Positions 1 through 52,666 of a DNA stretch of 64,000 nt are shown piece by piece. The position numbers were made by a program, and so were the translations under genes. The DNA comes from Gnetum montanum (lineage: Eukaryota > Plantae > Gnetophyta), in the NCBI GenBank assembly GCA_015680685.1, contig MNCI01003108.1, positions 238,241 to 302,240 of the forward strand, given 5' to 3'. The notes beneath the pieces are model-generated. The model saw only the letters and a program-made list of their open reading frames with translations. It made no database searches and was not told the origin of the DNA. Every line of letters starts with the position of its first letter. Within the stretch, counting starts at the first letter, position 1.

Positions 1-194
1 TACATTCCCTTTTCTTCATAACCGCCAAAGTTTTAATTGTTAAATTCACATCCCTATCATTCAAAGTGCCTCTCAAATTCATGTAATTACCCTTGGATAC
101 ATTAATTCTTGTTAATGTCCTCATTTTACACATTAATTTCAAGAAAAATCATTAAAAATTCGATCTCTTTCTGGTGTCTTCCTATAGTTGAGAC

Positions 195-319
195 GAGATA
201 TTGCGTACGCAATATCGCGTCCCATGAGATATCACGTACGCAATATCGCGTCCCATGAGATATCGCGTACGCGATGTATCGTACGCGATATCGCGTCCCC
301 TGTTCCTATAAATAGGAAC
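195..319 (+). promoter_or_regulatory. Putative internal promoter: 31-bp tandem repeats of the GATATCGCGTACGCGATATC palindrome plus TATAAATA (307-314)
   Basis: Units at 195-225, 226-256 and 257-300; same motif and same motif-then-TATA order as the LTR U3 at 3705-3836; TATA lies within the inverted repeat GTTCCTAT-AA-ATAGGAAC. Confidence 0.6.
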
Positions 320-780
320 CCCCGCCGCAACACTTAGCTTCATTTGGCATTTACGCAGGGGGAAGTTTTTGAATTTTTTCTCTGCGGCTTGCGCTTGAGT
401 GACCCTTGCTTTTTTAGCTATATCTCGCGCGTTGGTACTCCGATTTGAATTCCGTTTGAACCTGCTTGAACCCGGAGTGTTCAGTTTAGTCGTGGGGGAG
501 AGACACTTGCCGAAAAGTGCCTAACTTTTTTGAAATTTTTCGTCGCCCAACGGACATCAATTAGGGTAATTAATACTAACACTTACACAAATTGTGCCAA
601 AAATAATACACCCTTAAGTATACCGGGATATTAAAACGAATATCCACCTAAGTCATAGGACCCATCATTATAATTTTTGGGCACGATCACACAATAATAA
701 ACGATCTTAATTAAGGCAAGTAGTAAGGTATAACTTGATTTCCTAAACAACCTTACTAATGCTGGCCCGTGTGATTGCAC

Positions 781-3510
781 ATGGCCCCGAAACGCTCCTA
801 GCAGAAGAGTCCAACACAAGGTGGAGCAAAAAAACCTAGGAGAGGTCGAAGGCAAGTCCCTGTCGGACAACATAATGAACAGGAGGTGCATTCATTCAGC
901 ATCCATCAAGATGAACCTCCTACTAGACGATTCGGGCAGGCGGAAGGAGGAGCTGCTGCGCCTGAACTGGGACAACAGCTCACGTTGCCCCCGGAATGTG
1001 TTCAGACTATTCACACGGAGTCCACAATCGCTTCAGTGATTGTGGAACTCAACTTCGAATCTTTTGCAGAGTTCGCTCCTGAGGCTGTTAGGGATCACCT
1101 CAAAGGGTCTTCCTTATGGCCCGTCCTCTCTGAACAAGCTGCCTGGTACTTAGGAGAAACGTACCTATTCTGGCACAATAAGGAGTAGGGCACCACGGTA
1201 AACATTGGTGGTGTGACAGTGGATTTTTCTTCACAGGCAATTTTGGAAGTGTTAAACCTTCCGAATTCAGGCCCCTACGTTGCTCAGTTATCCACCCGAT
1301 CAGACCCTGATGTGCGAAAGGATTGGCTAGAAAGGGCTTATGGCAGAGATAAAGCTTTTGGTGAGCTAACCACGGAAGAGAGAGTTTATTTTAAAATCGG
1401 AACCTATCACCTCTTCCCCACGAAAGGTTTAAAAAGAATATCAACGTACGCGACAAGAGGATGTGCAGTGTTGATGGGAAAGGTTAATGCTAACCTTCCT
1501 CATCTATATTTGACGGAGATCCTAAGGCGATTCGAAGAACGGAAGACAGGAAAAATGGCACTCCCTTTTTCCTGTCTTATCAGAAAACTGTGTTGTCAGG
1601 CTGGGATTCGAGGATATACAAATGACGTTTTCCGAAAGGCCCAAAATGCTTCTTACGCTGAATTGTTAAAGGCGCCAGCTCCAAGAAAGAGCACTGGCGA
1701 AGAGTTGGGACCAGATGAAGAAGATGAAGAACAAATGACTGGACCTCCTGCGACTCAACTTGCAGGACCCAGTCAACCTCCAGCCACAGGTCTTAGCCAA
1801 CAACAAGAAGCAGGACCCAGTACAGGCCAGGATCAGCCGCCGCCGCAAGACTATAGACCATCAATGACCCATTTGAGGGCCATTGCTGAGACGGTTAGTT
1901 GGGGAAGTCGTGATGACGCCAATCTCTTCCGTGTCATCGATGATGCCAACCAGCCTANNNNNNNNNNNNNNNNNNNNNNNNNNNNNNNNNNNNNNNNNNN
2001 NNNNNNNNNNNNNNNNNNNNNNNNNNNNNNNNNNNNNNNNNNNNNNNNNNNNNNNNNNNNNNNNNNNNNNNNNNNNNNNNNNNNNNNNNNNNNNNNNNNN
2101 NNNNNNNNNNNNNNNNNNNNNNNNNNNNNNNNNNNNNNNNNNNNNNNNNNNNNNNNNNNNNNCGGAACCTCAATGACTCCTGCTGAACATGAGGATGTAT
2201 TGGACAGACTGCTTCAAATAGGACAAGTTTTAACGTCCCTGTTTGACATCCCCCAGGATGTAACAGCAATTCAGTCAGACCTCATTTTGACAAAGGGGAA
2301 ACTGGTCATATCCGAAGTAAGGGCTAAGGATGCTGAGGCTGAAGTGCAGAAATTACAAGAGCAGCTCATCGCCTTACAAGCAGCACAGCGGGATCCCTTG
2401 TGATTGGTTCCCGCGGACCAGTTAAACAATTTTAAAACCGAGCAACTAACCAAACTAATTGCAGAAAATAAGAAGGTGGCAGAAGAAAAGGAGACGGCCA
2501 CTTGGGATGCCTCCGCAGAAAAGGCGCAAACTCATGCGCATCTTAAGGCACTCAAGACCTTGCAAGAAGAGAATAAGCAGTTGGTTGCAGATAACCTTCG
2601 GTTGACTTCTGTGGAAAAGCAAAAGAATGTTCTCGATGAGCACTTTCATTGGCTGCGAGAACAACTCATCCGAGTCAACCAAGATGTAAGCCGTTTAGCC
2701 AGAGAAAATCGGACCCTCTCAGTGGAGGAGGTACGCGCTATTCGGCAAAAATCAGCCATCGAGATTAGTGTGTGGCAGAATGAGGCTAAACGACATGAGA
2801 AGCTGAAGGAGCACTTCCGTGACCAGGTGGGGATGTATAAACAGATCCTGGAGACAGAGATCCATATGGCCAAAGCTCAAATCAACAACATCAGTGCCTA
2901 GCACACTGATTGGGGGGCCATTGTGGACACTTATGCCTATGCCCACCAGGCGGAAATTAAGAACCAGGACCTGCAGATCCAGGACTTAACTGAATACATG
3001 GAGTTGACAAACCTTCGATGTGCCAACCTGGCCATGTTAACAGCAAGATGCCCGAGGTCAGAGCTCGAGCAGCAGGTAGCTTCCACCCACATCAAATATG
3101 AGGCAGAATTTGCAGAATGAAAGAAGTTGGCTGAAAAACTAGATGTTGCAAATTCTGAACTCGCGGTGGTAAAAGAAAGCTACCAAGGACAGAAAGATAT
3201 GGCAACCGACTTGGCTCGATGGCTAGTAGAACTTCACGAATACAAAGACAGAGCCAGAGCCTACGAAGAGGAACGACGGGTGTTCGCAGCATGGTACGTC
3301 AAAGCTAATCAGATGTTCCCGCAACTACCTTGTCCGTGGGAAGTGCCGACTCCATCAAACATCGGAGCATCAGCATGGACAGCACAAAACCCTCGGACCA
3401 AAGAGGAGAAGCTCCAGGCTATTGTTCAGTGTCATCAACCTTCAAAGCTTGGAGCATGTGACAAGGGGAAAGCACCCATGGAGGAGCCACCGCCACCAGG
3501 AACTACATGA
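781..3510 (+). pseudogene. Retrotransposon 3' accessory (env-like position) ORF, ~909 codons: basic N-terminus, putative plant transposon protein (Transposase_32-like) domain, acidic/P/Q linker, long coiled coil
   Basis: ATG at 781 (MAPKRS); ORF-track pieces 886, 1213, 2404, 2923 and 3127 share one frame, separated only by single TAG/TGA codons (CAG/CGA deamination-type). Motifs 'VNIGGVTVDFSSQAILEVLNLP' and 'LPFSCLIRKLCCQAGI'; ends EEPPPPGTT*. N gap at 1958-2162. Confidence 0.8.
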
Positions 3511-3681
3511 GTTCCACATTTTTGTAGTTGTAGCATTTTTTCTTTGTGTTGTGTCTTCCCACACTGCGGCAATTGTCCATTTCTTTTTCTAGTTAATAAT
3601 CCCATACCTATCCACTGTGTAATCACTGAAGCTTGTTCTCTTTGTAACTCGAGGACGAGTTTTTATTCAGTCATGGGGGTA

Positions 3682-4357
3682 TGATGAGACGCGGTTTGCA
3701 CAAGCCGCGATATTGCGTACGTGATATCGTAGCCGATGAGATATCGCATCCCCCGCGATATCGCGTATGCGATATCGCGTCCTTCCCTACGATATCGTGT
3801 ACGCGATATTGCAGTCCACCACCATGTCTATAAATAAGAGGCGGCTCTCCCTTATTTGGGGATCCCAGTTTTGGTGTAGCGAAGCTCTGGCAGTTTGATC
3901 CCTCTATAGTTAGAATTTTTCCCGTGTCTGCCCGCAGTGTGATGAATGTAATTGTACGGTGTCTTTATTCGAGTGTGCCGTACTTGGACACGCACATGAC
4001 CGGCAATAAAGATCGAGATTACTTCATCATTGCAGCATTCACTTAGTTTATTTANNNNNNNNNNNNNNNNNNNNNNNNNNNNNNNNNNNNNNNNNNNNNN
4101 NNNNNNNNNNNNNNNNNNNNNNNNNNNNNNNNNNNNNNNNNNNNNNNNNNNNNNNNNNNNNNNNNNNNNNNNNNNNNNNNNNNNNNNNNNNNNNNNNNNN
4201 NNNNTTTCTTACCCTTTTCCTCTTAGCTTAGCTTAGTTAGTATTATTTTCCACTGCCTTCAGGAGTAACATAGATTAGAACACATCATACACCTCATCTA
4301 GACTAAACCATACGTGACATATGCAAAACTAGTTTAGATGGGAAGACAGCGAACTAA
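3682..4357 (+). repeat. 3' LTR of element A (family A), 3' end truncated
   Basis: Starts TGATGAG after the PPT; GCGATATCGC repeats, TATAAATA ~3829, AATAAA ~4005; homology to 9669-10490 stops before the CTCATCA terminus. Confidence 0.85.
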
Positions 4358-5478: not shown

Positions 5479-6271
5479 TGATGAGCCACGATATCGCGTA
5501 CACGATGTCACATTCGGCACGTGATATTGCGTCTTGCCTCATCTTCTATTAATAAGAGGCGGTGCCCTTGGTTCCATATAGTTAGACTTAGAACCTTAGC
5601 CAGATTCTTGTAGTTTTGTTATTCCAGAGTTAGAATTATTTCTGTGTGCCCGCAGTAGGAGTCATAGAGTGAACAAATCTTTATTTGAGCCATTTGTACC
5701 TGAGCACAATGTTGTGTACGGTAATAAAGATGAACTTTATGATAAACCTTGCAGCATACGGATTAAGCTAATTAGTAATTAATTATTTTTTAATTCTTTC
5801 CTAGTTAATTAATATCTCTCTCAACCTTCAACCCCCTTAGTTAAATACACTCAGTACAACCACTTCGAGCATGTGTGTAGCACTTGGTAACCCAGTGACG
5901 ATTAGCGTTTGGTAATCCCAGCAGCGTTGCACTGGTTCAAGATCTGTACAGCAAGTGGGAATGGATACTAGTGTTAGGAACAATTAGAAACTAGTTAATG
6001 AATAGTTAATGTAAGTTAGCCACTTAGTTCTCTCTCCCTCTCATTTATTAGCATAAGACATAAAAAATATAAAAGCTATAAAAATCATGTACCTCAAGCT
6101 TACTTAACCATACAACCGTGACAATACAAGTAAGTTTGGAAAGACAACGATTGATTAACCCTGAGTGTTCCATTAAGGCGCATAAGCACTTAGTCCTTGA
6201 AGTTCAACTGGATCATGCGTGAAATGCTCATATTCATATGGTTGAGTTTAGGGGTACCTCACCACTCATCA
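5479..6271 (+). repeat. Solo LTR, family A, TSD CTTAT
   Basis: TGATGAG...CTCATCA termini; CTTAT at 5474-5478 and 6272-6276. Confidence 0.95.
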
Positions 6272-9668: not shown

Positions 9669-10490
9669 TGATGGGATGTGATATCACATGGGTCGCGATA
9701 TCGCGTCTTCCCCTGCGATATTGCGTACACGATATCACAGTCCGCTACAATGTCTATAAATAAGAAGCGGCTCTCCCTTGTTTAGGTATCTAGTTTTAGT
9801 TCCTTAGTGAAACTCTAGTAGTTTGATCCCTCCAGAGATAGAATTATTTTCCAGTGTTTGCCCACAGTGTGGTGAATGTAATTGTACGGCATCCTTTATT
9901 CGAGTGTGACGTACTTGGACACGCACATGACCGGCAATAAAGATTGATATTACTTCATCATTACAGCATTTACTTTGTTATTTATTTATTTATTTAATTA
10001 TTATTTACTGCTTTCTTAATTAGTCTCTCACCCTTATCTCCTAGTAATGTGGAATGAGTACGACTTGATTATGCGCATTTAAGTGTGACTACTTGGTAAC
10101 CTAGTGGCGTACCTAGGATCTGCGCTTGGTAATCCCAGTGGTAATCATGCATGAAGTCCAGGATGTGTATGAATGATCAAGGAATGGATGCTCATCGCAC
10201 TTAGGCTAGATTAGATTTTCTTACCCTTTCCCTCCTATCTTAGCTTAGTTAATATTACTTCCTATTGCCTTCAGGAGTAGCGGTTAGATTAGGAACACAT
10301 CATACACCTCACTCTAGACTAAACCATATGTGACAAATATAATACTAGTCCAGGTGGGAAGAAAATGAACTGTGACCTAAGGATAACTGTCTAGGTGCCA
10401 CAACTAGTCTGTTTGCGGAGTTCGATCGGATCGCGTGTGAGAACGCTCGTATTCGTATGGTTGAGTGTAGGGGTATCTCGCCACTCATCA
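9669..10490 (+). repeat. Solo LTR, family A, TSD ATCAT
   Basis: TGATGGG...CTCATCA; ATCAT at 9664-9668 and 10491-10495; closest to the element A LTR. Confidence 0.95.
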
Positions 10491-14149: not shown

Positions 14150-14932
14150 TGATGAGTGGCGAGGTACCCCTGCACTCAACCATACGAATACAAGCGTAAC
14201 ACGCATGATTCGGTCGAACTCTGCAGACTAAGTGCCTACACGCCTCATGGAACACTTAAGGTTAATTATTCATTGTCTTCCCAGACTTACTTGTATTTGT
14301 TACGGTGTATGGTTAAGTAAGTCTGAGGTATATGATTTTTATATCTTTTTATGTTTTTGTCTCCTATGCTAACAGGGTGAAGGGTAGAGAAACTAATTAC
14401 TAACTCTAACTAACGAACTAAGTCTAATTTAACCTAGCATCAACATCCATTCCCACTTACCATTCACACCATGAACCAATGCAATCGTGGTTACCAAACG
14501 CTAATCATTGCTGGGATCGCCACATGTAACGCACGTGCTCGAAGCAGTCGTACTGAGGCACTTAACTGGGAGAGAAGGGTTGAGAAAGAATTAATAACTA
14601 ATAAAGCATGTAAAAAATGAATAATAAATAACAGTAAATAAAAGTCCTAATTAGCCTATTTCATGCACTGCAAGGTTTATCCAAGAAGCTCGTCTTTATT
14701 GCCGTACACAAACTTGTGTTCAGGTACAATGTTTGCTTGAATAAAGATTCGTTCACTTTAGGACTCCTACTACGAGCACATGGAAATTAATCTATCTCTG
14801 GAGTGGAAAAACTTCCAGAGTTTTGCTACGGTCTAGGCCTAGATTAGGAAACAAGGGAGAGTCGCCTATTATTTATAGATATGACAGCGCACCGCAATAT
14901 CGCGGGGAAAGATGCGATATCATGTCCAATCA
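14150..14932 (-). repeat. Solo LTR, family A, TSD ATAGG
   Basis: Reverse complement of the family A LTR; ATAGG at 14145-14149 and 14933-14937. Confidence 0.95.
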
Positions 14933-25330: not shown

Positions 25331-26221
25331 TGATAAATCCAATTTTCTTTTGCAAGAATGATATCCTAGATATGATATTGCATCTACAATATCCTAGCCA
25401 TCCTACATCATTGTTGATATGATGTCTCGGGAATTGTGTGACCCTATAAATACTCACACTTGGTCATACTAGCAACAACAATTTCATTCCACCCTTAGCT
25501 AGACTCTTGTAGTTTGTTTTTGTAGTTAGCAATAGTGTGAATGCCTGCAGTGTGGTGTTAAGTAGTTATATGGCATCTTTATTCTAGTAGATTATACTTC
25601 GGCATGGTTCATAAGTGGAAATAAATATCAAGATTTTTTTCCACCATTGTAGCATCCACATAGTTCTTTTATTGCACTTAGCTAATTTCTTACTTAGTTT
25701 AATTTCCATGTTCACTTTAGCTTAGTTCTTTACATTTCCAAAGCACTTTACATGTTCATTAGTAAGGCAGAATGAGTACAACTGGTTTTGAGCATTAAAT
25801 GTAATCATTTGGTAACCCAATAGTGGTTTCACTTAAGTCACTCAGTACTGAACTCATTTGGTAATTCCAATAATGGTTACATAAGCCTAAGATGTGACTG
25901 ACAAGCTAGGATTTGATGCTCATCAGCATAGGCTAGAGTAGATTTACATTCGTGTCATTACTTAGAATTAGATTTTAATCTCACTTTCACTATATTTACA
26001 ACTAGGAGTAAATTAATTGAAACAACATCAACATATCATATGCCTCACTAAGAGTTAACCATACACTTGAACTTCACTAACTCAAAGTAGGAAGACAATG
26101 ATCATGAGCCTACTATCAACTCTTAGCATACTTACATTATCAATTCACAGATTATGATCTAGTTGTGTGTTTGCACTCATGACTTGTATTGTGGAGTGTT
26201 GGGATACTCTACTACTCATCA
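25331..26221 (+). repeat. 5' LTR of element C
   Basis: TGATAAA...CTCATCA; colinear with 45973-46871. Confidence 0.9.
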
Positions 26222-26241: not shown

Positions 26242-26749
26242 GTATCAATGTTTGCTTAATAGTTGATCTCATAGAGTTTGTTGTATCAAAACAAAAAAAT
26301 TTATTCTTTACATTCTTAATAGATCTTAATAACACACATACACACACATCTAAAGCATCAAGCATACAACATGACTTCAACACTTATGGAGAAGTTATCA
26401 TCTGCTTAAGAGACACAAAAAAGTCATGACAAGAAATATGATGACAAAGACTGAAGTGCACCTATGCAAACCAGGATTTCATACGCTCATACCGATTCAT
26501 ATTATCTTAACTTCACCTTTATCTTTCATCAAGATGAACAACTAAGGTTAAGAGATTTCCAAGGTAATGTATTTTTACCTCCTAAACATTTAGCACCATC
26601 CATGCCTAAGGAAATGTTAATGAGGTTGAACCTTGGCCATGCACAAGAAGGGTATTAGGCTACTAAATGTGGAACTTTTTGGTGTGTTAAAACATTAAGT
26701 AAAATGGAGATAAAATATGTATGTGTGGTTGTTGTGATTGTAGGACCAA

Positions 26750-26897
26750 GATGAGATGACAAAGAAAGCATTAGTGTAATTAGAAAGAGAAGGTGATGAG
26801 ATGACAAAGAAAGCATTAGTGTAATTAGAAAGAGAAGGTGATGAGATGACAAAGAAAGCATTAGTGTAATTAGAAAGAGAAGGTGATGAGATGACAA
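26750..26897 (+). repeat. 45-bp tandem repeat, 3 perfect copies plus a partial one, in the Copia 5' LTR
   Basis: GATGAGATGACAAAGAAAGCATTAGTGTAATTAGAAAGAGAAGGT at 26750, 26795 and 26840. Confidence 0.95.
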
Positions 26898-28084
26898 GGA
26901 ATGTACTACAAAAGGAGAAATTCATCCACATGGTCTCAATGGTTCATCCACCAAAGGCAAGCTTAAAGGAAAAGAATTCAAAGAAAGTGGACAAGTAGTG
27001 TTGTCATCATTGAAGCATGCAAAAGATTAATGTTGTAGACGAGGAACGATGAATTCATCATGCAAAGAAAGGTTGAAGAAAGACATCTCTAAGAAATAGT
27101 AGACGTCTTGGCATAATTGGAGGATGCATAGGTAAAGATGTCTTCAGGAAATAGTAGACGTCCTTCCTTAGGCAAAGACATATTCCATCAAGTAGAGACA
27201 TATTCACAAAATGCAAGCCAGTTTCAAAAAGATGTCTTCCATTAGATAAAGACGTCTTCCGAGAATAGAGATTTGAAAAAGACATCTTTCCCAAACAAGA
27301 ACGTCTTCCTAGAATAGAAGGAAAATATAGAAAGATGTCTCAAGCACCAAGAAGATGTCTTCCATGATCAGTAGTGACTATTCGCTTACTGTTACATAGG
27401 TTTCAAGATGGATTTGAAAACATGATAACTATGAGAAGACACCATATGCATTGAAAAGTGTGCATGCTTATGTGTAATCATTCTATAATCATTTTGTCAA
27501 TCATTGTGATATGTGTTGCTCTTCATTATATCATCATTTGTACACTATAAAGTGTGCTATACCTCAAAGTGTAAGGATTAGCAAACTAAGTTGCATTTAT
27601 CCCTTGTAATTATTCTCCTTTGTTGCCTTGTGGGGTTGATGTGCTTCTTGCAGGAAGGCATCTTGCTTGAGCTTGTTAGGACTCTACAAGACTGAGTGAT
27701 TAGTGTTGCAGCACAACACTTCAGAGTAGAGCTCAATATTGTAAAGATTATGGAAGCCTAGAAACCACATTTCAAGCTTGATGAAACCTTACAAGGTTGA
27801 GTGGTTGATGTTGCATCATAACACTCCAAAGTAGGGCTTGAAGATTATATAGGTTGTGGATCCTTCAAACCACATTTGAAAGCAACAAAGTTTGAAGGTT
27901 TGCTTGCAATCTACCCTTTGAGTGTTGACTACCCAAGTTGGGAAACCACACTAATTTTGTATGTGTGCTTTAATTCATAAAGTTTTAATTTGCAAAACTT
28001 ATTCATCCCTCCCTTCTAAGTTCAACAATCCACAAGTGGTATCAGAGCTTGGTACTCTTCTTTGTCATCATCAACTTCAAGAGT

Positions 28085-29150
28085 GAACATTGGAGGGAAC
28101 ATCTTACACAAAGCCACCCACCCATGTTCAATGGATTCAACTTTGCCTATTAGAAAGCAAGAATGCAAGGTTTCTTTAAATTCATGGAGTTTGAAGTGTG
28201 GGAGTCAATCCTTGAAGGCTAAGATCTGCATATCGATAGCTCCATCAGCATCATCAAGCCTTGAAAAAAATGGAAACAAGAGGAAAAGGATAAGTTTATG
28301 TTTGATTCAAAAGCTAAAAATTGTTCATATTGTGCATTCAATAAATTTGAATTTAATAGAATAGCATGATGTAAAATGGCCAAAGAAATTTGGCAAACTT
28401 TAGAAGCTACTTATGAAGGAACATCTATTGTTAAGCAATTAGAATTGTTAGTTTTACAAAGTGAATATGATAAACTCAAAATGAGAGAAGGTGAGAAAAT
28501 AAAAGATCATTTCTCTAGAGCTAATGATCTTGTTGTAGCTATTAGAGGAACAGGTAAAGATTTTCTTGAAAGTGATGTCATCGTCAAGATTACCAAAGCT
28601 CTACAATTAGAGTTTAGACCAAAGGTCACAACCATGGAGGAGTTTAGAAATTTCTCAACCTTAAAATTTGAAGAGCTTCAAAGTGTTCTCATTGCTTATG
28701 AAATGAATCTCATAAGTGAAGAAGCAATCCTAGAAAGACCTATTACTCTGAAGATTGCCTCTAAGGAGAAGGAGTTCAATGAACATGATGAGGGTAGCGA
28801 AGATGAGATGACCCTTCTCTCAAGAAAGCTACAACGATTGCTAATAAGAAGTAACAAGGAAACATCAAAACAAAGACTCAATTTGTTAAAAGGTAGAGAA
28901 AGAGGTAGAAATTTTTAAAATTCTAACTTAGATTTCTATTCTATATAATGTTGGGATTGTGGAGGAAAAGGCCATATAGCCTTTGAATGTCCTAGTGATA
29001 GGAATGTACAACCAAGGAATAGAACCAATGATGAGGAACTAAAAAAGACCAACTTTTATACAAGTTGGGATGATGGTGAGCAAAGTGAGGAAGAAGTATG
29101 TAACTCTTTCAAGGATTCACATCTCATATGCATGGTGCTTATAAATGAAA
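28085..29150 (+). pseudogene. Copia (SIRE-like) gag with UBN2-like region and CCHC zinc knuckle
   Basis: 'KPPTPMFNGFNFAY*KARM', 'AKEIWQTLEATYEGTSIVK', 'FRPKVTTMEE', 'CWDCGGKGHIAFEC' (~28948-28990). Confidence 0.88.
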
Positions 29151-32100
29151 GTTCTTGACATATAACTAAATAAGATGGTAAGTGTGACAAGAGGTATAGT
29201 GAATTTAAAGAAGAAATTTTTCTTTTACATCATTTGATTATGAACGCTAAGAAACTAGTACTTTCTAAGCTAGATGCTATTCATGCTAAAATGATAGAAG
29301 GGATCTTAGACATAAAAGTTGAGACTCACCAATTAACCTCTTTTAATAAGGATTGCGGTAAAGTTCAAGAAGAGGAGACTCTTGAAAAATAGCCAAGGAA
29401 TTTAGAGGAAGTAACACACAAAAATTCAAGCTCAAGCTCAAGCATAATAAGGTTTGATAATTTTGATCATCAAGATAATACCTTGTTTGTTTGTAAAAAT
29501 TGTGGATGTAAGTAGACTCTTAACTATACTCATGATGATCAAAACAAGTTTAACGCTTGGTCTTGTCAAAAAGGCTTTGGTAAGGAAATTGTTCAAGTAC
29601 CAATTAGTGAGAATGAAGAGAAGTGATGAATTGAAGATGATGCAATAAGTGATCAAAGGTTCTATCGTAAAAAGCATGAACAAATAGAGACATTACACAT
29701 ATAATCTAATGAGAGAGAACCAAAGGATGAGGTGGTACTTCATGATAGGGGACCTCATCTCAAACTTCATTAATCTTCTCTTCTCCTCTACAAGCAACGT
29801 AAGTCAAGGTAAGCTTCCATCTCTTTGCTTACTAGTTAATACGGTATTTGAAGTCCAAAATTATTTTTCTTGAAAAATGGTGGAATAATTATTTAGAGCA
29901 TCCCTTACATTCAATTTTGAGCTTGACATAATTGGTTCTATGAACATATGTGTGTAGCTCTTATTTTGATTTCCTTTGGATCATTATCTTATTTTTTTTG
30001 TCATGTTTAATCTAAACTTATTGTGACGATCTACTTCTAAGCTCATGCCCTTTGGGATATTTTTTCTATTTATGAAATAAAACACATTTGTGAAAAATCC
30101 TATCAATATTACTAATTGGAGATCTTAGTCTCCACATTTGAGCTTAATGTTGACCTACAGTTGTAGTGTGTTTGTGATTTATAACAATTGTACATTAATA
30201 GCCCAAGATAAGTAGCACATGTGTCGGGGGAGCCTATTCCTCATTATCCATCACCATGTTAGAGATCACCAATGTAGGAGTAATCTTTGGAGACTTCAAC
30301 CAAGAGACATTGAAATAACAAAATATTCCAAAATGAGCAAGATAAGGACACCAAGAGGTATTTTTTCTTTTAAGAGGATGGCTAAGTCTTAAATTTGTGA
30401 TCTCCTTTGGCATGATTATCATTTCATTTTTGAAAATTAATTTTATTTGTGGCATTGTCTTATACAAAAAGAAAAATATGCATGTTTCTTTCATGACTTC
30501 CATATCCTTTGTGTTGATGTATTCCACATTTCTTGTTGAATATAAATATACAAGTTCTAATGATATATTTATTTCAATTAAATAGGTTGCTTGATATACA
30601 CTTAGTTTTTAACATCAAATTATGTGTTGTTGGTTTTTTTTTATTAGTTGTAGATCCTTATTTTGAACTGATAAGAGTAAGTCTTAATGTATCATCAGCC
30701 CACATATTTGATATTCAAGCATAAGTTGAAGTAAGAAGTAAATATATCTTTATGAAAGAATGCAAATAGTGATATTATTCCTTACAACAATATGAGCAAG
30801 CACATGATGATTTTAATTATGGGAAAGTATCCACAATTTGATTAAAACATCTTTTGAATAGTTTGCCTTGAGATGTACTTCCTAGCTCAAGAATTTAAAA
30901 TATGGCATGTTTGATCTCACATTGTAAAGATGTATTTCCCTTATCATATAAGATATGCCCTAATCTTTTGCTGATGTTTTTAAAAGGACAAAGAATATTT
31001 TAGCATTAAAAACACTATGCACTATAAACTACTAATGATTTATTTGAGACAAGTTACTTGATCTTCAAGACTTATAGTTCACTTCAAGCTTTAAGTTTGA
31101 GTATCAGTTGGAAAGGCTTGGATTAGTTCTTGATAAATTCAGGATAACTCCTCATGGAACTTCGTGCTAAAAAATGTATGCTCTTTAATTAATATTGTTG
31201 CCTTCTAAATGCTTTTTTTTTTGGATTCTAACATGATTGTTGATTATGCTTATTTTATACTATGCATTTATGATGACTCTTTTTCCACTTTATGTGCCTT
31301 ATCCTTTGTTTCTATTCAAATAGGGGGAGAGTAGTGTGGTTATATTTGTATGATTACTAACCTATTTTCTTAAGTTTTGAACATCATCAAAAAGGGGGAG
31401 ATTGTGGACCTTTTAGTGTGTCAAAATGTTAAGTAAAATGAAGACAATAGATGTATGTGTGGTTGTTGTGGTTGTAGGACCCAAATGAGATGACAAGGAA
31501 TGCATTGGTGTAATCAAAAAGGGAAAGTGATGAGATGAAAAGGAACACACTAGTGTAATCAAAAGGAGAAAGTAATCCACATGGTCTCAAGGGTTCATCC
31601 ACAAAAGGCAAGCTTAAAGGCAAAGAATTCAAAGAATGTGGATAAGTAGAGTTGTCATTATTGAAGCATGTGAAAGATCAAGGTTGTGGACAAGGAACGA
31701 TGAATTCATCATGTAAAGAAAGGTTGAAGAAAGACATCTCTGAGAAATAGTAGACGTCTTGGTAAGATTGGTAGATGTACAGGCAAAGACATCTTCAAGA
31801 AATAGTAGACATCTTTCCTCAGGCAAAGATGTCTTCCATCAAGTAAAGACATCTTCACAGAATGCAAGCCAGTTTCAGAAAGATGTCTTCCATTAGACAA
31901 AGATGTCTTTCAAGAATAGAGATTTCAGAAAGATGTCTTTCCCAAACAAAGGTGTCTTTCCAAAATAGAAGGCAAATATAGAAAGACAACTCAGGCATGA
32001 AGAAGACATTTTCCATGACCATTAGTGATCGTTCACTAGCCATTACATGAATTTCAAGATGGTTTTGGAAACATGATAGCTATAAGAAGACATCATATGC

Positions 32101-32689
32101 ATTGGAAACTCTACAAGCTTATGTGTAGTCATTGTACAATCATTTTGTTAATCATTGTGATCTTTGTTGCTCTTCATTGTATCTTCATTTGTACACTATA
32201 AAGTGTGTTGTACCTCAAAGTGTAAGGATCAGCAAACTAAGTTTCATTTATCCTTTGTAATTGTTCTCCTTTATTTTCCTACGGGGTTGATGTGCTTCTT
32301 GTAGGAAGGCATCTTGCTTGAGCTTGTCGAGATCCTACAAGATTAAGTAATTAGTGTTGTAGCACAACATTCTGAAGTGGAGCTCAAAATTATAAAGATT
32401 GTGGAAGCCTAGAAACCACATTCCAAGCCTAATGAAACCTTGTGGGGTTGAGTGGTTGGTGTTGCAACACAACACTCTGTATTAGGGCTTGAAGATTGTA
32501 TAGGGTGGGGATCCTTCAAATAATATTTAAGAGCAACAAAGTCTAAAGGTGTGCTTGCTATCTACCATCCAAGTGTGGACTACCCAAGTTGGGGAGCCAC
32601 ATTAATTTTATGTGTGTAATTTAATTCATAAAGTTTAAATTTTGGGAACTTATTCATCCACCCCCCTTCTAAGTTCAAAGATCCACACT

Positions 32690-38000: not shown

Positions 38001-39092
38001 TAGCATTGACAAGTGAATTGTGACATTGTCTATTCATTTTTTGTCGATCATAGTGATGTTAAACTCTTGTAGTATTATGGGTCATCTTATCACCCTTGGA
38101 CTCACCACTATTATATTCATCAAAAATCTTATTACACTACGATCCATGTTGAGAGTGTCTAAACTTTTCCAGTACATACACCATGACCATAAGCTCCTTC
38201 TTCGAGGTGTTCTAGTTGAGTTCTACTTTGATGATGCTTCGACTATGATAGTGTATGTAGTATGGCCTCTTTTGATCATCAAGTTGAGTCAATACTACAT
38301 CCATTGCATAATTTGAAGCATCTATCATAATTTGAAAGGGCTTAGGCTAATTTGGAGCTTGAAGGATTGGTGTTTCAATTTGCTTATGTTTTAGTGTCTT
38401 AAATGTCTTCTCAAATTATTCTGTCCATTAGAATGATGTATCTTTCTTTGATAATTCTACTATCATTTTTGTTATTTTTTAAAGACTTTTCGATGGATCT
38501 TCTATAATATCCTATATGGCCCAAGAATGATTGGACATCCTTAATGATTTTTGGCCTCTAGGAAATATTTTAAATGATTCTTACCTAATCTAGATCTACA
38601 TCTATTGCTTTTTGTGATGTCCTATGTCCTAGAAAAATCTCACCTTGGACCATTAAATGGCTCTTTTTCCAATTGAGCTTCAAACTGGTTTCAAGACATC
38701 TTTTCAATATTTGCTGCAGTTAGTCCAATGTCTGCTTAAAATCTAGTGCATAAATAGAAAAATCATCCATAAATACCTCTACACCATTACCAATATGTTT
38801 TTGGAAAATACTCAGTACTAGTCTTTGAAAAGTAGTGGGCGCATTACACAAGCCAAACAACATTTGCTTGCAGGCAAATGTCCTCCAGGAATTGGTGAAT
38901 GTGACCCTCTCTTAATTTTTCGATGCAATGTGGATTTGGTTATACCCACTATACCCATCAAGAAAACTATAGTACTAATGTCCTACTATGATATTGACTA
39001 TCTGGTCAACAAATGGTAGAGGAAAATGGTCCTTGAATGTTGCTAAATTCAATAACCAAAAATCAATGAAGACCCTCCACTTGTCACCTTTC

Positions 39093-42316: not shown

Positions 42317-43944
42317 CTTTGTTTGGAACAATGACTAAGAGACTAACCCATTCACTATCTGCGGTCAAATAGAGGAATCCTACCTTTAATAGCTTTTCCA
42401 ATTCCTATATTACTACTTCTTTGAGCTTACGATTCAATCTTCTTTGAGGCTGGCAATGTGGTTTGACAGCTGGATCTGTATAAATTTAGTGTTGACATAT
42501 ACATGGGTTGATGCCTGTTATTCCATTATAGGACCATGTGAATGTTATTAGCCATTTATTCATCACTTCCAATAATCTTTTCTTTTGTTATTTATCAATG
42601 TTGGTGTTAATGATTACTAGTTTTTTATTATTCAGAAAAGCATATACTAGTACCTCTAGTAGGGCTTTTAACTCTAACATTTCTTGTTCAAATTTGTATG
42701 GTATCTCTAACTATTCCCACTCAATGTCTTCTTCTTAATGTAAATGCACATAGGGGTGTTTCCTCCTTAACTATTCTAACTTATTGGTTTCTTCAACATA
42801 AGCATGTATGATTTGATTGGTTAATTCCATATATATTTTAGATTCTGTCTCTTTATCGTTAATCTGCGTCTAGGTGCCTTCTTGTTTGGTAGCTGCCACA
42901 TACAAACATTGCTACACACACATTTCTTCTACACATTGATTGCATGATGTATTAATTTCTTATTTTATAGCCTATATTTTTTTTCACGCAATTACACCCA
43001 TTATCACTATATGTTATACAAGAAACTTGGCATCTTTGTATAATTCCAACTTCATCTTCCTTGAAAATTTTCAAGGACAAGTCTCTAATTCCTAGCTTAG
43101 CATCCATAGTGCTAAGCCATGCTCTTCCCATGATTATAGGAAACTCTCCCTTGTTTTTCCCCATGTGTATTACTAAGAAGTAAAAAGGGTAAGACCAGCC
43201 ACATATGGTGGTGATGAAATCATCCACTTTTCTAAGTGGAATAGTGATTGACTAGTCTACAAGGTCTAATCAGATATTGCTCAAAAATCAAAATTTTTTA
43301 GCCATGATGTTGCATCTACTATGTTGCATCACCTACGATGTCAAAGCTATGATGTTGCATCTCCGATGTTGTGGTCATAAAAATCTATATATACATAGTG
43401 AGCTAGAAACATTTTTCATTCTACCATTTCATAGTATGGGGAGTTCATGTAGTTTTTCTGAGCTCTGACACTTGAACTTTCAAACACCATAACTTCCTCA
43501 CCACAACCTTGATTTGCATGATTCTTGAACCCAGTTGAACTTGGAGTGCTTAACTTAGTTGTGGGGGGGGGGGGGGGGGGNGATAATGAGGGTTGAGCCA
43601 AAATTTTCTAATACCATGAGATAATATTAAGGGTAAGTATAAGAATAAATAAGAATATTTTAATCAACTAAGAAAATAAAAGCTAATAGACTTAACCGAT
43701 TCTCCTAACCAACCATTCAATGTTATAATAAACAAGAAAATGAAAAATGTGAAAGGTCATAACAATCAAAGATATAACAATTAAGCATTTCTTTTTGAAT
43801 TTCTCTAACTCTATAATCATAATAAGGGTCATAACTAATAATAAAGATAGAAATTAGATTAAACCAAGGATCCGAGAAAGGATTATGAGCTATTAGAAAC
43901 ATATTTAAAATCCTTTGATAACCTTAAATTCTTAATGATTGTAA

Positions 43945-45758
43945 ATGGCTCCTAAAAGGCCTACCACAAAAGGACACAAGCATTAGGTTCTACACCTGCA
44001 AGTAACATGCCAACAATAAAATAGTAGCAATAAGTAGGACTTGATGGGTCAACACCTACTGGTGATAAACCTGAATAGTAAGCTCCACCACCACAACAAG
44101 ATTATCGACCTTTAATGAGTCACCAACAATAAATTGTAGAAACCATTAGCTGGGGAATAAGGGAATGTTTTGCTCAATAGAAAGTAAGAGACAACTTTGT
44201 AAGCTCTATGATCTCCATAGCACCTACTAGTGGGCAAGTATCTTTGCAGGTAGGAGAAGATGATGAATAGACACAACAAATCTCAGGGAATGCTTCATCA
44301 TTCTAGGTAATGTTAGAAACCAAGGAAGGTGCCACAATAGTGTTCATGCAACACCAAGATACAACAAGAGTAGTAGAACATATCAAAGAATCTTTTAATG
44401 TTCCTATTGTGCCACCTGTAGATATTTTTGAAGCTAGAGATGTTCAAATGTTAATGATCCTAATAGAGTATGAGGATGTCCTTGACATACTGCTGTAGAC
44501 GAGCCAAGTTATGCATAATCTCTTCGATATCACCTGTGGTATCACTATAATGCAATCTAATTTCATAGTCGCAAAAGAAAAGTTGGTCATGGAAGAAATA
44601 AGGGTAGAGCATGTAGAGAATGAGGTGCAGAGGCTACAAGGAGTTAGTAGCTTTAAGAGCAGAGAAAAGAGACCCTGCACAATATGTAGCCCTGAACTAG
44701 CTAGAAGCTTCCATAAATGATCAGGTTAGGTAGTCAATCATAAAAAATATTTAGGTTGAGATGGAGAATGAGAAGGGTGTGTGGAACACATTTATGGCTG
44801 AATCCCAAACACATGCACATGCCAAAGCCATCACTACCTTGGAAGAAGAGAATAAAAGCTTGCTATTAAAAACACAAGGTTGATAGACATTGAGAAGGAA
44901 AAGAATGTTCTTGAGTAAAGTATTTATCAGTTGCAAGAATACTTAATCTGCCTAAACTAGGATATGAACAAATTGGCCCAAGAGAAAAGAACCTTGTCAA
45001 TGGAAGAAGTTCATGCATTTTGCCAAAAGTCAGCAATTGAAATAAGCGTGTGGAAAAATGAGGTCAAGAGGCATGAGAATCTCCAGATGGGTATATAAAA
45101 CTAGATCAATCAGAAGGAGATCCAGATGGTGAAGGCCAAGATCAACTCCATTACATAAACACCAAATTATTAGCCCATTCTAAATAGCCTTGACCATGTT
45201 CACTTTGCCGAAGTGAAAAATAAAAACCTACAGATAGAAAATTTAACAAAATACATAGGGTTAGCCAACATTTGATATGCTAACCTGGCCATGTTAATAA
45301 TAGGTAGGCTAAGAAATGAGCTTAAGCAATAGGTAGCTATAGTATATGTTATGTATGAAATGGACTTTGTAGATCAAAAGGACACCTAACAGAAATTACA
45401 TGTGGAAATATTTGTGTTAGAAATTATTAAGGCTAGCTACTAGGAATAGAAAGTGATTGTAGCAAACTTGACATGCCATATGACAAACTATTAAGAACAT
45501 AGAAAGGTGGCCATAGCTTTTGAAGAGGAGAGAAGGCAATTTGTGGCTTGGTACGTGAAAGCTAACAAGATGTTCTCACAACTACCATGCTCATGGGATA
45601 TACCAATGTCATCCAACATCATCAAATTTTCATGGATAGTACATCATCCCTAATCAAAATAAGAAAAGCTTTAGGTGGTCCTAAACAAATATCAATTCCA
45701 AGAGCCTAATGATAAGGAAATGAATCGAATGGAGGAGCCTCCATCACCTGGAACATAA
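43945..45758 (+). pseudogene. Accessory ORF of element C (internal deletion of the Transposase_32-like domain)
   Basis: Starts MAPKRP; 'ETISWG', 'EYEDVLD', 'QKSAIEISVW', 'AWYVKANKMFSQLPCSW'; ends EEPPSPGT*; clearly homologous to 781-3510. Confidence 0.85.
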
Positions 45759-45972
45759 AGGCCACATTGAGCTATTTTGTTTTGTTTTGTTTTGTCTTAT
45801 TATTTTCAACTATGTTAATTTTGTAAAAACACTGCTCGAAACATAATGCAACATTTAAAGTCATGTATATAGTTAGTCATGTCAAGTTTGAGTCTACCTC
45901 CCAATTTTATAAGGAACTTTATTCTCATTTTATTTTAAATTGAGGATGAGTTTCCAATTAATCATGAGGGTA

Positions 45973-46871
45973 TGATAAATTCAATTTTTTTGCAAGCACA
46001 ATATTGTAGATCTGATATTGCATCTATGATAACGTAGCTACGATATCATAGATCATCCTATTTCATTGTTGGTGCAATGTCTTAGAAGCTATGAAGCCTT
46101 ATAAATACTAGCACATGGTTGTACCAGTAACAACAATTTCATTCCACCCCTCGCTAGACTCTTACAATTTGTTTTTGTAGTTAGTGATAGAGTGAATTCC
46201 CGCATTGTGGTATTAAGCAATTGTACGGTATCTTTATTCGTGTGGATTGTACTTGGACATAATTCATGAGCGGAAATAAAGATTGAGATTATTTTCCACC
46301 ATTACAGCATCCACTTAGTTCTTTTATTACACTTAGCTAATTTCTTACTTAGTTTAATTTCCATATTTACTTTAGCTTAATTCTTTACATTTTCAAAGCA
46401 CTTTACTTTACATGTTCATTAGTAAGGCAAAATGTGTATGACTAATTTCGAGCATTAAGTGTAAATGTTTAGTAACCTAGTAGTGGCTTCACTTGATTTA
46501 CTTGGTAGTGAACTCACTTGGTAATCCCAATAATAGTTACATGAGCCCAAGATGTGATTGGCAAGCTAGGACTAGATGCTCATTGCCATAGGCTAGAGTA
46601 GATTTACATTCCTGTCATTACTTAAACTTAAATTTTAATTTCACTTTCATTATGTTTACATATTGAACCTAACAACATTAACATATCATATGTCTTACTA
46701 AGAGTTAACCATACACTTGAACTTCACTATCTCAAATTGGGAAGATAAAAATCATGAACCTACCATCAACTCTTAGCATACTTACATTATCCATCGACGA
46801 ATTACAATCTGGTCATGCACATGCACTCGTGACTTGTATGGTGGAGTGTTTGGATACCCTACCACTCATTA
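45973..46871 (+). repeat. 3' LTR of element C
   Basis: PPT AATCATGAGGGTA then TGATAAA; ends CTCATTA followed by the TSD. Confidence 0.9.
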
Positions 46872-48888
46872 AACTTTTTTTGTACTTTTTTGTTTTACAA
46901 TGTTTTTTTAATTTTTCTTTTCTTATAAAATTTCCTTTTTTGAAGTCTTTTTGTTATTCATGTTGTATGTTTTATGCTTGAAGTTTTATGTTTTATATTT
47001 TTTATCAATAAATATTTTCACTTTAATGTAAAAAGCAAGTTTATTTTTTTGGTTATTTCTTATGCTATTAAGATATTGGGTAAATAATTATGTAAAGTAG
47101 TGAGATCATATCATCCATCCCTTTGGTCTCTATGAATAAGATACTTTCTTCATGAAAGTAATATGGTTATTCTCACATGAAAACTAAAATTAACTTATGA
47201 TTACGATTCTTTGATGAAAGGGGGAAGGATCAATAGAGAATAGAAAATGGTGTGACATCAAGAAGACTTGTTGATTACTTGTACTTCATTTATGGTTCTT
47301 ACTACTCCATGTAGATATATCATTGCTTGTGTTTTGATTTTGATGGAAGGATATTATCTAATAAAGTTGTTATCTTACTATGTCACTAGAAAGACATGTT
47401 ACCCATGCGTGAATGTTTTATGTTACCCACACCTGAAGGTAGGCTACTTCCAAGAATCTTAAGGTCTTTTGGACTAGTTCCATCATGTGACTGGAGAGAC
47501 ATGTTATCCAAGCCTAAAGGTGCATCACTAATGGGATTAGTATTTGTCTATGGGACTAGAAAGACATTCATCCATACTTGAATGCATCCCTCTAACGAAT
47601 GACCAAGAGTTCTCAAACTTAATGTTTTAATTAATTAATTATTTTCTTTTACTGAGTGATGGTGTTTTCATATGGTTGTGGTTACTCTCATGGTGGTAAG
47701 TTCAAGATGATACAATGCAATGTCACTGGCAAAGAAATGGACTCTTTCTAAAACTTGAATAGATAGGTATGATGGTCATCTTAATCACAATTATCATAAG
47801 AACCTGTTATGGACATGAAAAGGTATCTCATGTTCAAATCTCTACAATTCCTTCTCATTCCATTATTCACCTCACTACTATATGTGATTATATACCTAAT
47901 GATCTTATTTAGTATAATGTAGGATCTTGATAACAAGAAGTTGTATGGCTATAGAACATTGGATTAATTGACATTCAATCTTCAACATGCTCATGGACAT
48001 CTTGTGAAATGGTTATACAAGAGTATTTAGGATAAAAGCTTACTTTAGAGAGAACCCACTTGTATAAATTTTGGACATCTAATCTATGCACCACCTCCAT
48101 ATGCCCAAATCATCAAAGCACAACTTCATGAATTAATTGCATCATTACTTTAGCTCAATCTCTTTGTAAACCTCTTATTTAACATCCCAACTCTCAAGAA
48201 TTATGCTTTAATCATATATCAAATTACTATCAATGCTTGATCATACTATTTTCATGTCTAAACACTTCCTATTACTCTTGTTTGACCCCAAGTTTGCTTT
48301 GAAATTCACAAAAATTAGGCTAGAAATCAAAAGAAAATCTTCAATGCAACTACCTATGTCAACATAGCTTCATTGACACATCAATGTTGAAGAGATCATA
48401 AAAACCTATAAATAGCCATGGAAGGTTAAAAATTTTTGTCATTTTTCTCATTCTATGAAGGGAGTTTTTATTATTCTAAAACTCTAGAAACTTTTAAGTA
48501 TGATATCTCACACACCAGGCACTCAATTCACATTATTTGAAAAACTATGACTTTCCAGAGTCAAGCTCTATGTTGTGGAAACTAGAAAGCTACAATTTTT
48601 TATACTTTTAAATGCTTAATTTTTTAACTGATATAATTAATCAAAAATAATAATTAAAATATTGATAATTTAATAATAAAATAACTTCCTTAGAACCTCG
48701 AAAATAACATTGATAATTTAATAATAAAATAGTTACCTTAGGATTTCTAGAACAATAAGATGTAATAACTTAGGATTGTTAGTATCAAATTTTTTAAAAT
48801 CAAGACAAAAGCCAAGGACAATCAAGGGGAATAATGCCTAATATATAAGTAATTAAAGACTAATGGCCAATATTTTTTGTGAATATAG

Positions 48889-51609
48889 ATAACATCTAGA
48901 AAAGATCTGCAAGTAAGAGGTTCATCTCAAATGAGGGAAAAGCAACCAAAAGGAGGATGTGGATAGGAATAAGAGCAACCATAAGGTGAAGCAAAGGCCA
49001 TGCATACAATTGAGTTCCTCACGAAAGAGATTGAAGTGAAATATGTCCAGTGAATATGAATAAAAAACACTGAACAGTTTATGCAAGATGAAGTACTTAG
49101 ACTAAGGCTAGTATGGAGATCACATTCATAGAGGCTTTTCTAGAAAAGATTCAAGCAAAGAAAATTCAAAGCTCCATCTTGCAAGAGTTAGAATTTGGAT
49201 CCTTCCTAGGGTTTTGAATGTTACCAATATGATCCACCATTTCCACTAATGGAGAGTGATACCTTGGTGAAACTTATGTCTTTTGAAATAATCGTCAAGG
49301 AGATGCCACCATGAAATTTAAGGACATCACAATCTCTTACTTAATGGAGGCTATCATGGAAGCCTTGGAACTTCCTAACATGGAGACCAAACTAGCAAAG
49401 ATATCCACATAGTCTAATGTTGCGAGTAAGAAAGAGTGGACCCATAGATGTTATGGAGTAAACTAAAAGAACTATAGTGCACTTAACCAAGTGGAATGAG
49501 TTTACTTAAATATTGTAGTATGCAACCTGAATCCCATAGTATACCCAAGCAAAGTCACATCCTTCTCTACCAAAGCCTATGCTACATTTAGTAGGAATTT
49601 CTATTCAACTTGCACTAACTCATCTTCCTCAAAATAGAGAAACACTTTAAATAAAATAAGAAGAGTAGGAAGACACTACCTTTTCTATGCTTAATTAGAA
49701 AACTCTGCAAAAGAGGAAGGATAATCTGCTACTCAAATAACATCCTTAGAAGAGCCATTATAACATCATGGTAGGAGATAATGAAGGAGAAGCCACCTTT
49801 GTAGCTTTAGGACGATGGACCACTCCCATGAGCCAAGGTAAATCATGTGTATGAGAAATATTGAGACAGTTAAGGAAACAATACTAAGTACTTGGTGGCA
49901 AATCTATGGACTATTCCATTATAATGAATCATTAAAATAAAGTTTCCTAAGCTCTACACTAGTAGTAGAATGATTTTTCGAATCTATTCTCTACATGCAA
50001 AAGTTAGGCCACTATTCAAGTTAACCCTATTGTAAGGGGAGTTGTAATATTTATACCATCTAAACAAATGCCAAATTTTTTGGATAATGTTACAGCTTTC
50101 TCTATGATGCTTGAGTAAATGGAAGGTATGAAAATGGTGATCATCCAACACAAAGAGTGGGAAATAGCTTTAAAGATGATGACAAATCACATAAGAGAAG
50201 CACTAAAGGTTTCTACAACACCTATTCCATACTTTGTTGCTATGGTCAACATTCAAATATCTACAAGAACCAATTCTAGGGGTACAACTATACCATAGCA
50301 TGAGGAAGTGTTGGACAAACTAGAGGGCATTATGCTCATAATTCTAGATTTATTTTACATTCCAAAACATATCACATCCTATTCTACCTTGATCAAGATA
50401 AGGGAAAAGATCATAATTATCAAAACAAAACTTCAGAAAGCTACAACATTGAATCCACAATTAGTAGCTAAAGTTACATAACTCAAAGCTTTCTTGTCTA
50501 ATCTTACTATTCTCCAAGTAGGCATGACAAGTGATGAGACATTTGAACAACTTAAAATCAAACAATAGTAGATGAAGATGAAAAAAGAGATGGTCACTTG
50601 GAATGCATCCTTAATAGAGGTGATATTGAATGGTGCAAAAAAGGACCTTTCTAGGTGTGCAAGGAGAATAAATATTTGGAAAAAGAAAATCATTGATTAC
50701 TTAAGATTGAAAAGCAAAAGAAATAATTTGAGTACCTTAACTAACAACAAGAGAAATTGGTAAAAGTCAATGTAGACATGCAAAGATTAGCAACTGAAAA
50801 TAGAAATCTCTTAATGGAGAAAGTACATAAAATAAGGTAGAAATTGGTAATTGAGATATTCACCTAGAAAAATTGAGATCATAAAGTATGAAAAATTCAA
50901 GAATTATTATAGGGAATAGGTTGGCATATAGAAGGAGATCAACAAAAAAGAAATTCAATTAGTCAAATCCAAAGTCAATGAAGCCCTCTAGCAACTTCAA
51001 GACAATGCATTGCAACCCATCGTTGATGGACTAAATGCATATAACAAAGCTAAAATCCATATGAAGAAGCTAAAAATTGAAGACATGATGAAGTATATGG
51101 AGTTAGCCAATCTCTAGTAAGCTTATCTAGCAATGTTGACTATTGGAAAGCCTAGATCTAAATGGAAAAGTTTGTGCTTATTATACGAAAATGAGTATAA
51201 GCTCCATAAGAAGGCATGCCAAAAACTAGAAGTATCTAACACAAAGCTTAAGATTCTTAAGAAATAATTTAAAGATCAAAGAATAGTAATTAAGAAGTTG
51301 GTTAAGAGAATTAGTAACTACCAAGAGCTATGAAACATAATAAAGGCATTGGACATTGAACGCAAATAATTTGCTGCCTGGGTTATCAATGCTTATGAAA
51401 TGTTTCATATCTTGTCTTGTCCTTGGGAAGTGTCAACCACTACAACTCTAGGAAAATCAACATACACAATAAATGATTCTAGGACTAAGAAGGAAAATAT
51501 GAGAGCCTTGATTAATGCATTTCAACTGAGATCAGTAATAGCAGGATAGCCACACTATGCACCAAAGTAGCAGAAGCCATAAGAGTCACCACCACCTAGA
51601 ACAACTTAA
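48889..51609 (+). pseudogene. Accessory ORF of element D (heavily decayed)
   Basis: Decayed start ATA ACA TCT AGA AAA; 'YLGETYVF*NN', 'EALELPN', 'LPFLCLIRKLCKRGRI', 'LSCPWEV'; ends SPPPRTT*; about the same length as the A copy. Confidence 0.8.
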
Positions 51610-51828: not shown

Positions 51829-52666
51829 TGATAAATGTCAATTTTTGTAAGTCAAGTCAATACAACAACATCAACATATGCATTATTTTATTAACACATC
51901 AACATTAATACAAGTTTAATAAATGCCTATATAAATGCACACATCCATCACATTTATGGTACCATTCGATTAGTAATATAGTAAAAAATTTTCAATTTCT
52001 TTTCATGAAAGTTTGTATTAGTCACTGATTACCTACAACATGAATCAAGTAGATTATACAAAATTTTATTTGAGTGATCATATACCTAAACACATTTTCA
52101 TGGTGACGATCAAACTAAGATTCATTTTCTTCATTATAGCACTTGGCTTATTTTTATAATTTCTTGAATTACAATTTATTGTAATTAATTCTCTAAGTTC
52201 AACACTTCATTAATTATTTTACTTTCATTACACTTAATCAAAATCACATAAGTATATTAACTTCAAGCATAAAAACATTAATGTTAGGTAATCTCAGCAG
52301 TATACCACTTGGTACACCTAGTAGTAGACACTTGGTAACCTAGCAACATTGATCTATGTTTAGGATGTGTACAACTAGTTGGGAACAAATGCTTCATGTT
52401 TAGGCTAGATCAAATTTATTTTGTACAGTTATGTTAATTAGTTAATAATTTTAGTATTTTAAGAATAATACTTTGATCATATGTCTCAATCATACTTAAC
52501 CATATAAATTAAGTGCAGACAAGTGTTATTGAATATAGCAACCAAAAATCTAATGCTTAGCTATCTAGACATGTATACTAGTCTCACTTCATAAAATTCA
52601 ACTAGATTATGCATGGATACCTGTAACTTGTTTGGTTGGATGTAGAGTCTACTTTATTGCTCAATA
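51829..52666 (+). repeat. 3' LTR of element D (family A-related, decayed)
   Basis: Follows GGATGAGTTTT...TGGAAGTA; TATAAAT ~51929; CTTGGTAACC repeats; 3' end approximate. Confidence 0.75.

Follow-up and report, generated by a model that had tools for sequence, protein, structure and literature searches.

Sireviruses carry element-specific, palindromic repeated motifs in their LTRs before the TATA box and again before env (Bousios et al. 2010, PMC2829016). The same report suggested an internal promoter, though its authors could not identify one (PMC2829016), and hairpins and siRNA hotspots were added to the description of these motifs in 2016 (PMC4728375). For Athila6A of Arabidopsis, a promoter and an intron of the ENV ORF are annotated (Panda et al. 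2016, PMC4977677), and ATHILA env mRNA has been described as spliced from full-length RNA (PMC7197481). In sunflower, a Transposase_32 domain is reported in an Athila 3′ ORF, and PF20167 was called related to Athila ORF1, PF03078 (PMC11728184). The function and expression of plant env-like or accessory ORFs have been a long-open question. Palindromes in the LTR and before env are known from Sireviruses and an ENV promoter from Athila6A; what is new in the locus described here is that a probable Athila element, of Gypsy, shows this layout together with an unambiguous TATA box and concerted change. In a literature search covering mainly openly accessible main texts, we came across no account of a motif common to the U3 and an internal promoter in Athila.

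The window analyzed, a 64-kb stretch, is AT-rich, CpG-depleted repeat DNA (CpG o/e 0.28) made up of nested LTR retrotransposons, as in a plant genome. Three related elements, A, C and E, were compared (Table 1). Element A (1-4356) is far less decayed (CpG o/e 0.80). A and E show only their 3′ halves, and the pol of A lies outside the window; C is a full element with paired TG..CA LTRs (82.8% identical over 879 columns), a 5-bp TSD (AACTT), PBS, PPT and gag. The gag match in C is weak (Retrotrans_gag, PF03732, gypsy-type, E 1e-4), and in three frames of C 33200-36300 only gag matched. Element E, the third homolog, was newly found by tblastn through its accessory ORF remains (E 7e-40, 1e-22). 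The accessory ORF of A combines a basic N-terminus, a Transposase_32 domain and a long coiled-coil-like half; its coiled coil and NLS were assessed by eye. PF20167 (Transposase_32) matched residues 138-276 with E 5.5e-10 and 39.9 bits, under the 45-bit curated cut-off. A thus has a sense extra ORF between pol and the 3′ LTR with an Athila-ORF1-related domain, at this sub-cut-off score. The decayed 18-mer after the 5′ LTR of C is PBS-like and may be of the Athila type (tRNA-Asp). From ORF domain and PBS, the element group is probably Athila (Gypsy).

Table 1 Features of elements A, C and E in the 64-kb window.
Feature	Position	Strand	Remarks
Internal palindrome array, A	189..298	+	14-bp unit; 31-bp tandem period
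TATA box of inferred internal promoter, A	307..314	+	TATAAATA; aligns with C and E TATA boxes
Inferred 5′ leader exon, A	335..565	+	Homologous to C and E leaders; start site approximate, inferred
Predicted leader intron, A	566..780	+	GT donor at 566, 215 nt; canonical acceptor directly before ATG in most family copies
Decayed sense accessory (env-like) ORF, A	781..3510	+	909 codons, 5 internal stops, N gap
Polypurine tract (PPT) before 3′ LTR, A	3673..3681	+	Same tract precedes LTR at 62696 (-)
3′ LTR, A	3682..4356	+	N gap 4055-4204; sister-LTR homology stops near 4356
U3 palindrome array, A	3707..3812	+	TATA at 3829
5′ LTR, C	25331..26221	+	Decayed U3 array; PBS-like 18-mer then follows
Internal array, C	43305..43393	+	4 decayed cores at -81, -50, -36, -22; TATA-like box 43386
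Decayed accessory ORF, C	43945..45760	+	Shortened internally; 42% identity to A in C-terminal half
3′ LTR, C	45973..46871	+	U3 array about 45998-46049; TATA at 46100
Internal array, E	48354..48414	+	Decayed alternative core (CG-T-CG-A-CG type) at -50, -36, -28; TATA 48407
Decayed accessory ORF remains, E	49116..51606	+	C-terminal half 33% identical to A
3′ LTR, E	51829..52665	+	End approximate; U3: 4 alternative-core matches at 51869-51910

Further repeats lie between the LTRs of C. A second LTR element, Copia-like by eye, is nested shortly after the PBS (26670-32687; LTR pair ~84% identical), and a nested gypsy pol occupies about 37000-42000 (-), with an integrase match (rve, E 4e-8) at 37155-37520 and RT-like motifs by eye. 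Inside that pol region, near 40.3-41.2 kb, the translation contains a cyclophilin-like stretch; a Pfam scan of 40345-40794 in one guessed frame found nothing.

The initial annotation had described a 24-nt palindrome arrayed upstream of a TATA box in A and again in the U3 of A, and both arrays were recovered. Allowing ≤4 mismatches, four 24-mer matches lie in the internal array (at 195, 226, 257 and 271) and three in the U3 (at 3707, 3755 and 3789). Nine matches were counted in the whole window and none in any of 30 dinucleotide shuffles; A alone has seven, against 0 in 200/200 shuffles; the matches in the arrays of A are not due to chance. While the 24-mer with its central GTAC is real, the true unit is a 14-bp CpG-rich palindrome, ACGCGATATCGCGT, and GTAC is merely the junction of two such units. 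TRF returned this 14-bp unit ×7.0 at 193-296 and a 31-bp unit ×2.5 at 195-272, the 31-bp tandem duplication being younger than the 14-bp unit; positions 189-224 form a near-perfect palindrome of 36 bp. With 3-4 CpG per unit, CpG o/e of the internal array reaches 2.5 versus 0.21 in the window beyond A. The array ends 12 nt before the TATA box, whose sequence starts at both 307 and 3829. In other family copies, the upstream flank is joined to an array with fewer units (three contig joints in X1 and one 4-read joint in X21). The decayed variant noted earlier in C was likewise present in both places (43305-43372 and about 45998-46049).

Array, TATA box and leader form a promoter-like module that occupies an aligned slot in A, C and E, as the proposal of an internal promoter would have it. 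The TATA boxes of the three internal sites align with each other, and the leaders are homologous (A-C z 8.8, A-E z 3.5, C-E z 4.6). The accompanying statement that no other LTR homology surrounds the array held for A: downstream, 316-780 showed no similarity to its own LTR (z 0.4) or to the sister LTR at 9670 (z 0.0), and upstream, 1-188 gave p>0.19 against all five LTR stretches compared. In C, the 60 nt after the internal TATA weakly resemble C's own LTRs (p 0.03-0.04). Among 15 leader-versus-LTR comparisons, one gave p 0.015 (A leader versus the 5′ LTR of C) and one p 0.050, both between elements. Since the three leaders are homologous, the TATA boxes align and the flanks in A lack LTR homology, the slot predates the divergence of A, C and E; the internal promoter may have originated long ago from a duplicated U3.

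In A, a leader of about 470 nt separates the TATA box from the ATG (781). The GT donor context at 566 is present also in C, and no splice donor aligned with that of A was found in E. A canonical acceptor directly 5′ of the ATG accounts for 95% of X5 contig depth, 11/13 X24 reads and 23/27 X21 reads. Such splice-signal-like sequences are conserved in family copies. The depth of family contigs is greatest at 438-577 and 718-777, so leader and acceptor region are the parts that most copies have in common. The leaders of A and C also contain a G-rich, PPT-like tract (A 485-495, C 43563-43582), located where the stretch of highest A-C conservation ends.

It seems somewhat probable that 189-780 is an internal Pol II promoter of the accessory ORF, built on the 14-bp CpG palindrome of the U3 and kept in step with it by copying and selection. 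The promoter of the accessory ORF and the element's own U3 would then answer the same, probably host, activator. Transcription would start at about 335-345 in A, and the 215-nt leader intron would be spliced out, joining the exon to the ATG. Template switching by reverse transcriptase, or gene conversion, would copy the arrays, and the CpG-rich units would act as a methylation-sensitive switch that turns on genomic RNA and accessory mRNA together. Selection on a promoter is suggested by the fixed TATA spacing (21-28 nt from array end to TATA in 3/3 internal sites, and likewise in LTRs) and by a leader conserved across proteins only 33-42% identical. Several points weigh against this reading: the comparison comprises three elements from one window, E is weak and lacks an aligned donor, and the acceptor could instead serve splicing from the LTR leader, as in the ATHILA env mRNA model published in PMC7197481.

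Do internal motifs follow those of the U3 across subfamilies, as had been predicted? For this comparison (n=3 elements, A, C and E, all from one window), the 120 nt before each TATA were taken as the array region and scored by local alignment. The internal array of A scored 103 against its own U3 versus 42/35 (C) and 29 (E), that of C 53/56 against its own U3s versus 45 (A) and 31 (E), and that of E 48 versus 26/43 (C) and 17 (A). Within this set, the top-scoring U3 for an internal array was thus in 3/3 cases that of its own element, bearing the prediction out by local score. Across 1032 window tiles, the best match of the A internal array was its own U3 and the two best of C were its own two U3s. 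For E, the tile of its own U3 tied for second behind one non-LTR tile, with two non-LTR tiles scoring at least as high, and E is the weakest case for tracking. By transition-blind 12-mers, the internal array of C showed no distinct preference for its own U3 (26 and 12 versus 23 for the U3 of A and 30 for the LTR at ~61 kb).

A decay-tolerant count separated two cores, of the CG-A-NN-T-CG and CG-T-CG-A-CG types. Core I was counted three times in the internal array and six times in the U3 of A; four times in the internal array, once in the 5′ U3 and three times in the 3′ U3 of C; and one and two times in E. Core II, defined post hoc after inspection of E, occurred three times in the internal array and four times in the U3 of E, and otherwise once in the 5′ U3 of C, with 0 in both arrays of A and in the internal array and 3′ U3 of C. 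Tiles with ≥3 cores numbered six (core I) and four (core II) of 482, the arrays themselves included. Two transversions per unit set the core of E apart from that of A and C, in the internal array and the U3 alike, so the difference does not stem from deamination. As units of C and E sit at identical offsets (-50 and -36), orthologous units appear to have changed core, with the U3 changing along. These sequence comparisons support concerted change of internal and U3 arrays across A, C and E (n=3).

A simpler cause of concerted change than a shared factor, and one missing from the initial annotation, may be copying between internal array and U3. Of the four occurrences of the variant GAGATATYRC in the 64-kb window, three lie in the internal array of A and one in its U3; together with the collinear alignment of internal and U3 arrays up to the TATA box in A and E, its confinement to these two arrays of A points to an exchange by copying. 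An exact inverted match of 23 nt shared by the two arrays was discarded as proof of copying, resting as it does on two CpG decays.

Further LTRs in the window belong to A-related subfamilies (5479-6271, 9669-10490, 14150-14932 (-), 57363-58203 and about 61030-61650); all five contain 2-5 core-I units, of which the final one lies 25-27 nt upstream of the TATA. At about 53890-54722 (-), a C-like 5′ LTR is followed by PBS-like sequence; among the window tiles, the U3 of this LTR ranks third for the internal array of C. A 3′ LTR at 61806-62696 (-) shares PPT and start with A and has an unrelated U3 palindrome array: GGTTACT/AGTAACC repeats at 62590-62690, with background scores against all three internal arrays. 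The internal promoter of this minus-strand element would fall off the window. Subfamilies with such differing palindromes (A/C, E and a fourth in the LTR at 62.6 kb) can separate models of a host factor, a self-encoded factor and copying.

Four RNA runs (X21-X24) were examined, with 450, 821 and 141 reads on 1-1957 and 81, 158 and 9 on 318-900. Nearly all reads had <95% identity and therefore stem from other copies. At this low depth, and with reads mostly from other copies, the four runs contained neither spliced joints nor a start cluster near the internal TATA, which may weigh against an internal promoter. Most reads at 199-330 derive from the LTR U3 of related copies, judging by the PPT/LTR-start or LTR-TATA sequence in their loose ends, and reads there were not counted as array expression. 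Loose ends at 395, 774 and 1471 in X21 were rejected as start sites; they lie beside partly matching genomic bases and resemble a template-switch oligo. Other observations were a 7-molecule start at 422 in the leader of A, a strand bias in X21 that flips between leader and ORF, and, at 781, a mixed loose end in seven X24 reads (agreement 0.68), which could reflect divergent introns or another upstream exon.

Rather than a host activator, the accessory protein itself might be the shared factor. As a nuclear activator or anti-silencer, it would bind the palindrome of its own subfamily in both LTR and internal promoter, with protein and motif co-evolving in a Tas- or VANC-like manner. By analogy this is conceivable, and we consider it unlikely. 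Motifs match within a subfamily and differ between subfamilies, as do VANC targets, which are tandem repeats varying between related TEs (PMC5735166). The basic N-terminus and Transposase_32 domain of the protein would also suit such a role, nuclear localization has been predicted for a sunflower Athila ORF that carries the domain (PMC11728184), and the Tas protein of bovine foamy virus binds both LTR and internal promoter (PMC4929722). Yet copying alone explains the tracking, and descent by itself accounts for both motif change and protein distance (42% identity A-C, 33% A-E). A Pfam search of the accessory protein returned no DNA-binding family and no PMD match that would indicate a VANC/MAIN-like domain, and a PDB sequence search gave 0 matches at E≤1. 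An AlphaFold model from a 5-row alignment had a pLDDT of 37.6 and was unusable for fold comparison. Searches for relatives yielded 0 loci for the exact palindrome in viral contigs, and 0 confirmed relatives among 168 (single ORF-piece query) and 597 (alignment A2 query) pattern matches in metagenome contigs. The accessory protein had 0 matches among 7994 near-length candidates and two short fragments among 383 shorter ones, the same two appearing in a cluster-representative search. If true, a self-binding loop would give a plant retrotransposon a feedback switch like that of foamy-virus Tas.

Could the arrays be a structural by-product, hairpin-prone palindromes copied during reverse transcription with no regulatory role, and the accessory mRNA be spliced from the LTR? 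Both arrays of A fold strongly (z -7.35 internal, -7.34 U3) and have the private variant in common, palindrome regions of Sireviruses are indel hotspots (PMC4728375), and the acceptor before the ATG is conserved. The decayed arrays of C and E folded no better than shuffles (z 0.82, -1.54). A mere by-product is hard to reconcile with the distance to the TATA box, held at 3/3 internal sites as in LTRs, and with a TATA box and leader kept across elements of such divergent proteins, and we judge this explanation quite unlikely.

The initial annotation had also offered host SBP/SPL proteins, binding GTAC in both promoters, as the shared factor. GTAC is the SPL binding core, and CGTAC is present in the arrays of A (GTAC four and two times); SPL may bind subfamily A alone. 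As the common factor, SPL is very improbable: none of the five C and E regions contains GTAC, nor do 5/7 other LTR U3 regions examined, and the C junctions AGCT/ATCT/AGAT are not derivable from GTAC by transitions. Hardly credible, finally, is an LTR fragment inserted by chance into A, for although the array and U3 of A are collinear through the TATA and the outer arm of the array resembles the first LTR bases, neither flank has LTR homology and the orthologous slot in C and E is filled with their own motif types, an orthology by which chance insertion, the origin that the initial annotation had named as refuting its proposal, is largely refuted.

The internal-promoter reading can be set beside several known systems. 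As proposed for A, foamy viruses have a promoter in the LTR and a second one ahead of the accessory genes (PMC4929722, PMC8670036); there, the virus's own protein was shown to bind both, whereas our comparison concerns sequence only and claims no homology. VANC of VANDAL elements recognizes subfamily-specific, non-coding tandem motifs in a TE with an accessory gene (PMC5735166), an arrangement resembling that of the elements here. VANDALs are DNA transposons, however, VANC is described as MAIN-like in structure (PMC13547354), no such match having been found for the accessory protein here in Pfam and PDB sequence searches, and the motifs here are TATA-proximal, unlike VANC targets. Maize Grande gene23 and Retand elements are reported to have a 3′ accessory gene with its own promoter, as proposed for A (PMC7264820, PMC11963269), but their ORFs are antisense, carry a TRP28 (PF04195) domain and belong to the Tat/Retand lineage. 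Athila6A likewise belongs to Gypsy, and its 3′ accessory ORF lies in sense orientation and is annotated with an intron and an internal promoter; a motif common to the U3 is not described in the available text of that report (PMC4977677).

The layout itself works like the repeated-motif (RM) system of Sireviruses, but the element is not a Sirevirus. Palindromic, CG-rich, element-specific motifs in several copies before the LTR TATA and the env-like gene are found in both (before env in 77/79 Sirevirus linker copies). Sireviruses, in contrast, are Ty1/copia SIRE elements of another superfamily, and the elements here have a gypsy-type gag (PF03732) and a PF20167 accessory ORF; Sirevirus RMs, as described, have a CGG-CCG core that is absent here. 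Relative to that description, the elements here further differ in a TATA at fixed spacing after the internal array in all three elements and in units repeated head to tail every 14 bp, no more than 120 nt from the TATA. A two-promoter, one-motif layout in Gypsy, as in the Copia Sireviruses, suggests convergent design.
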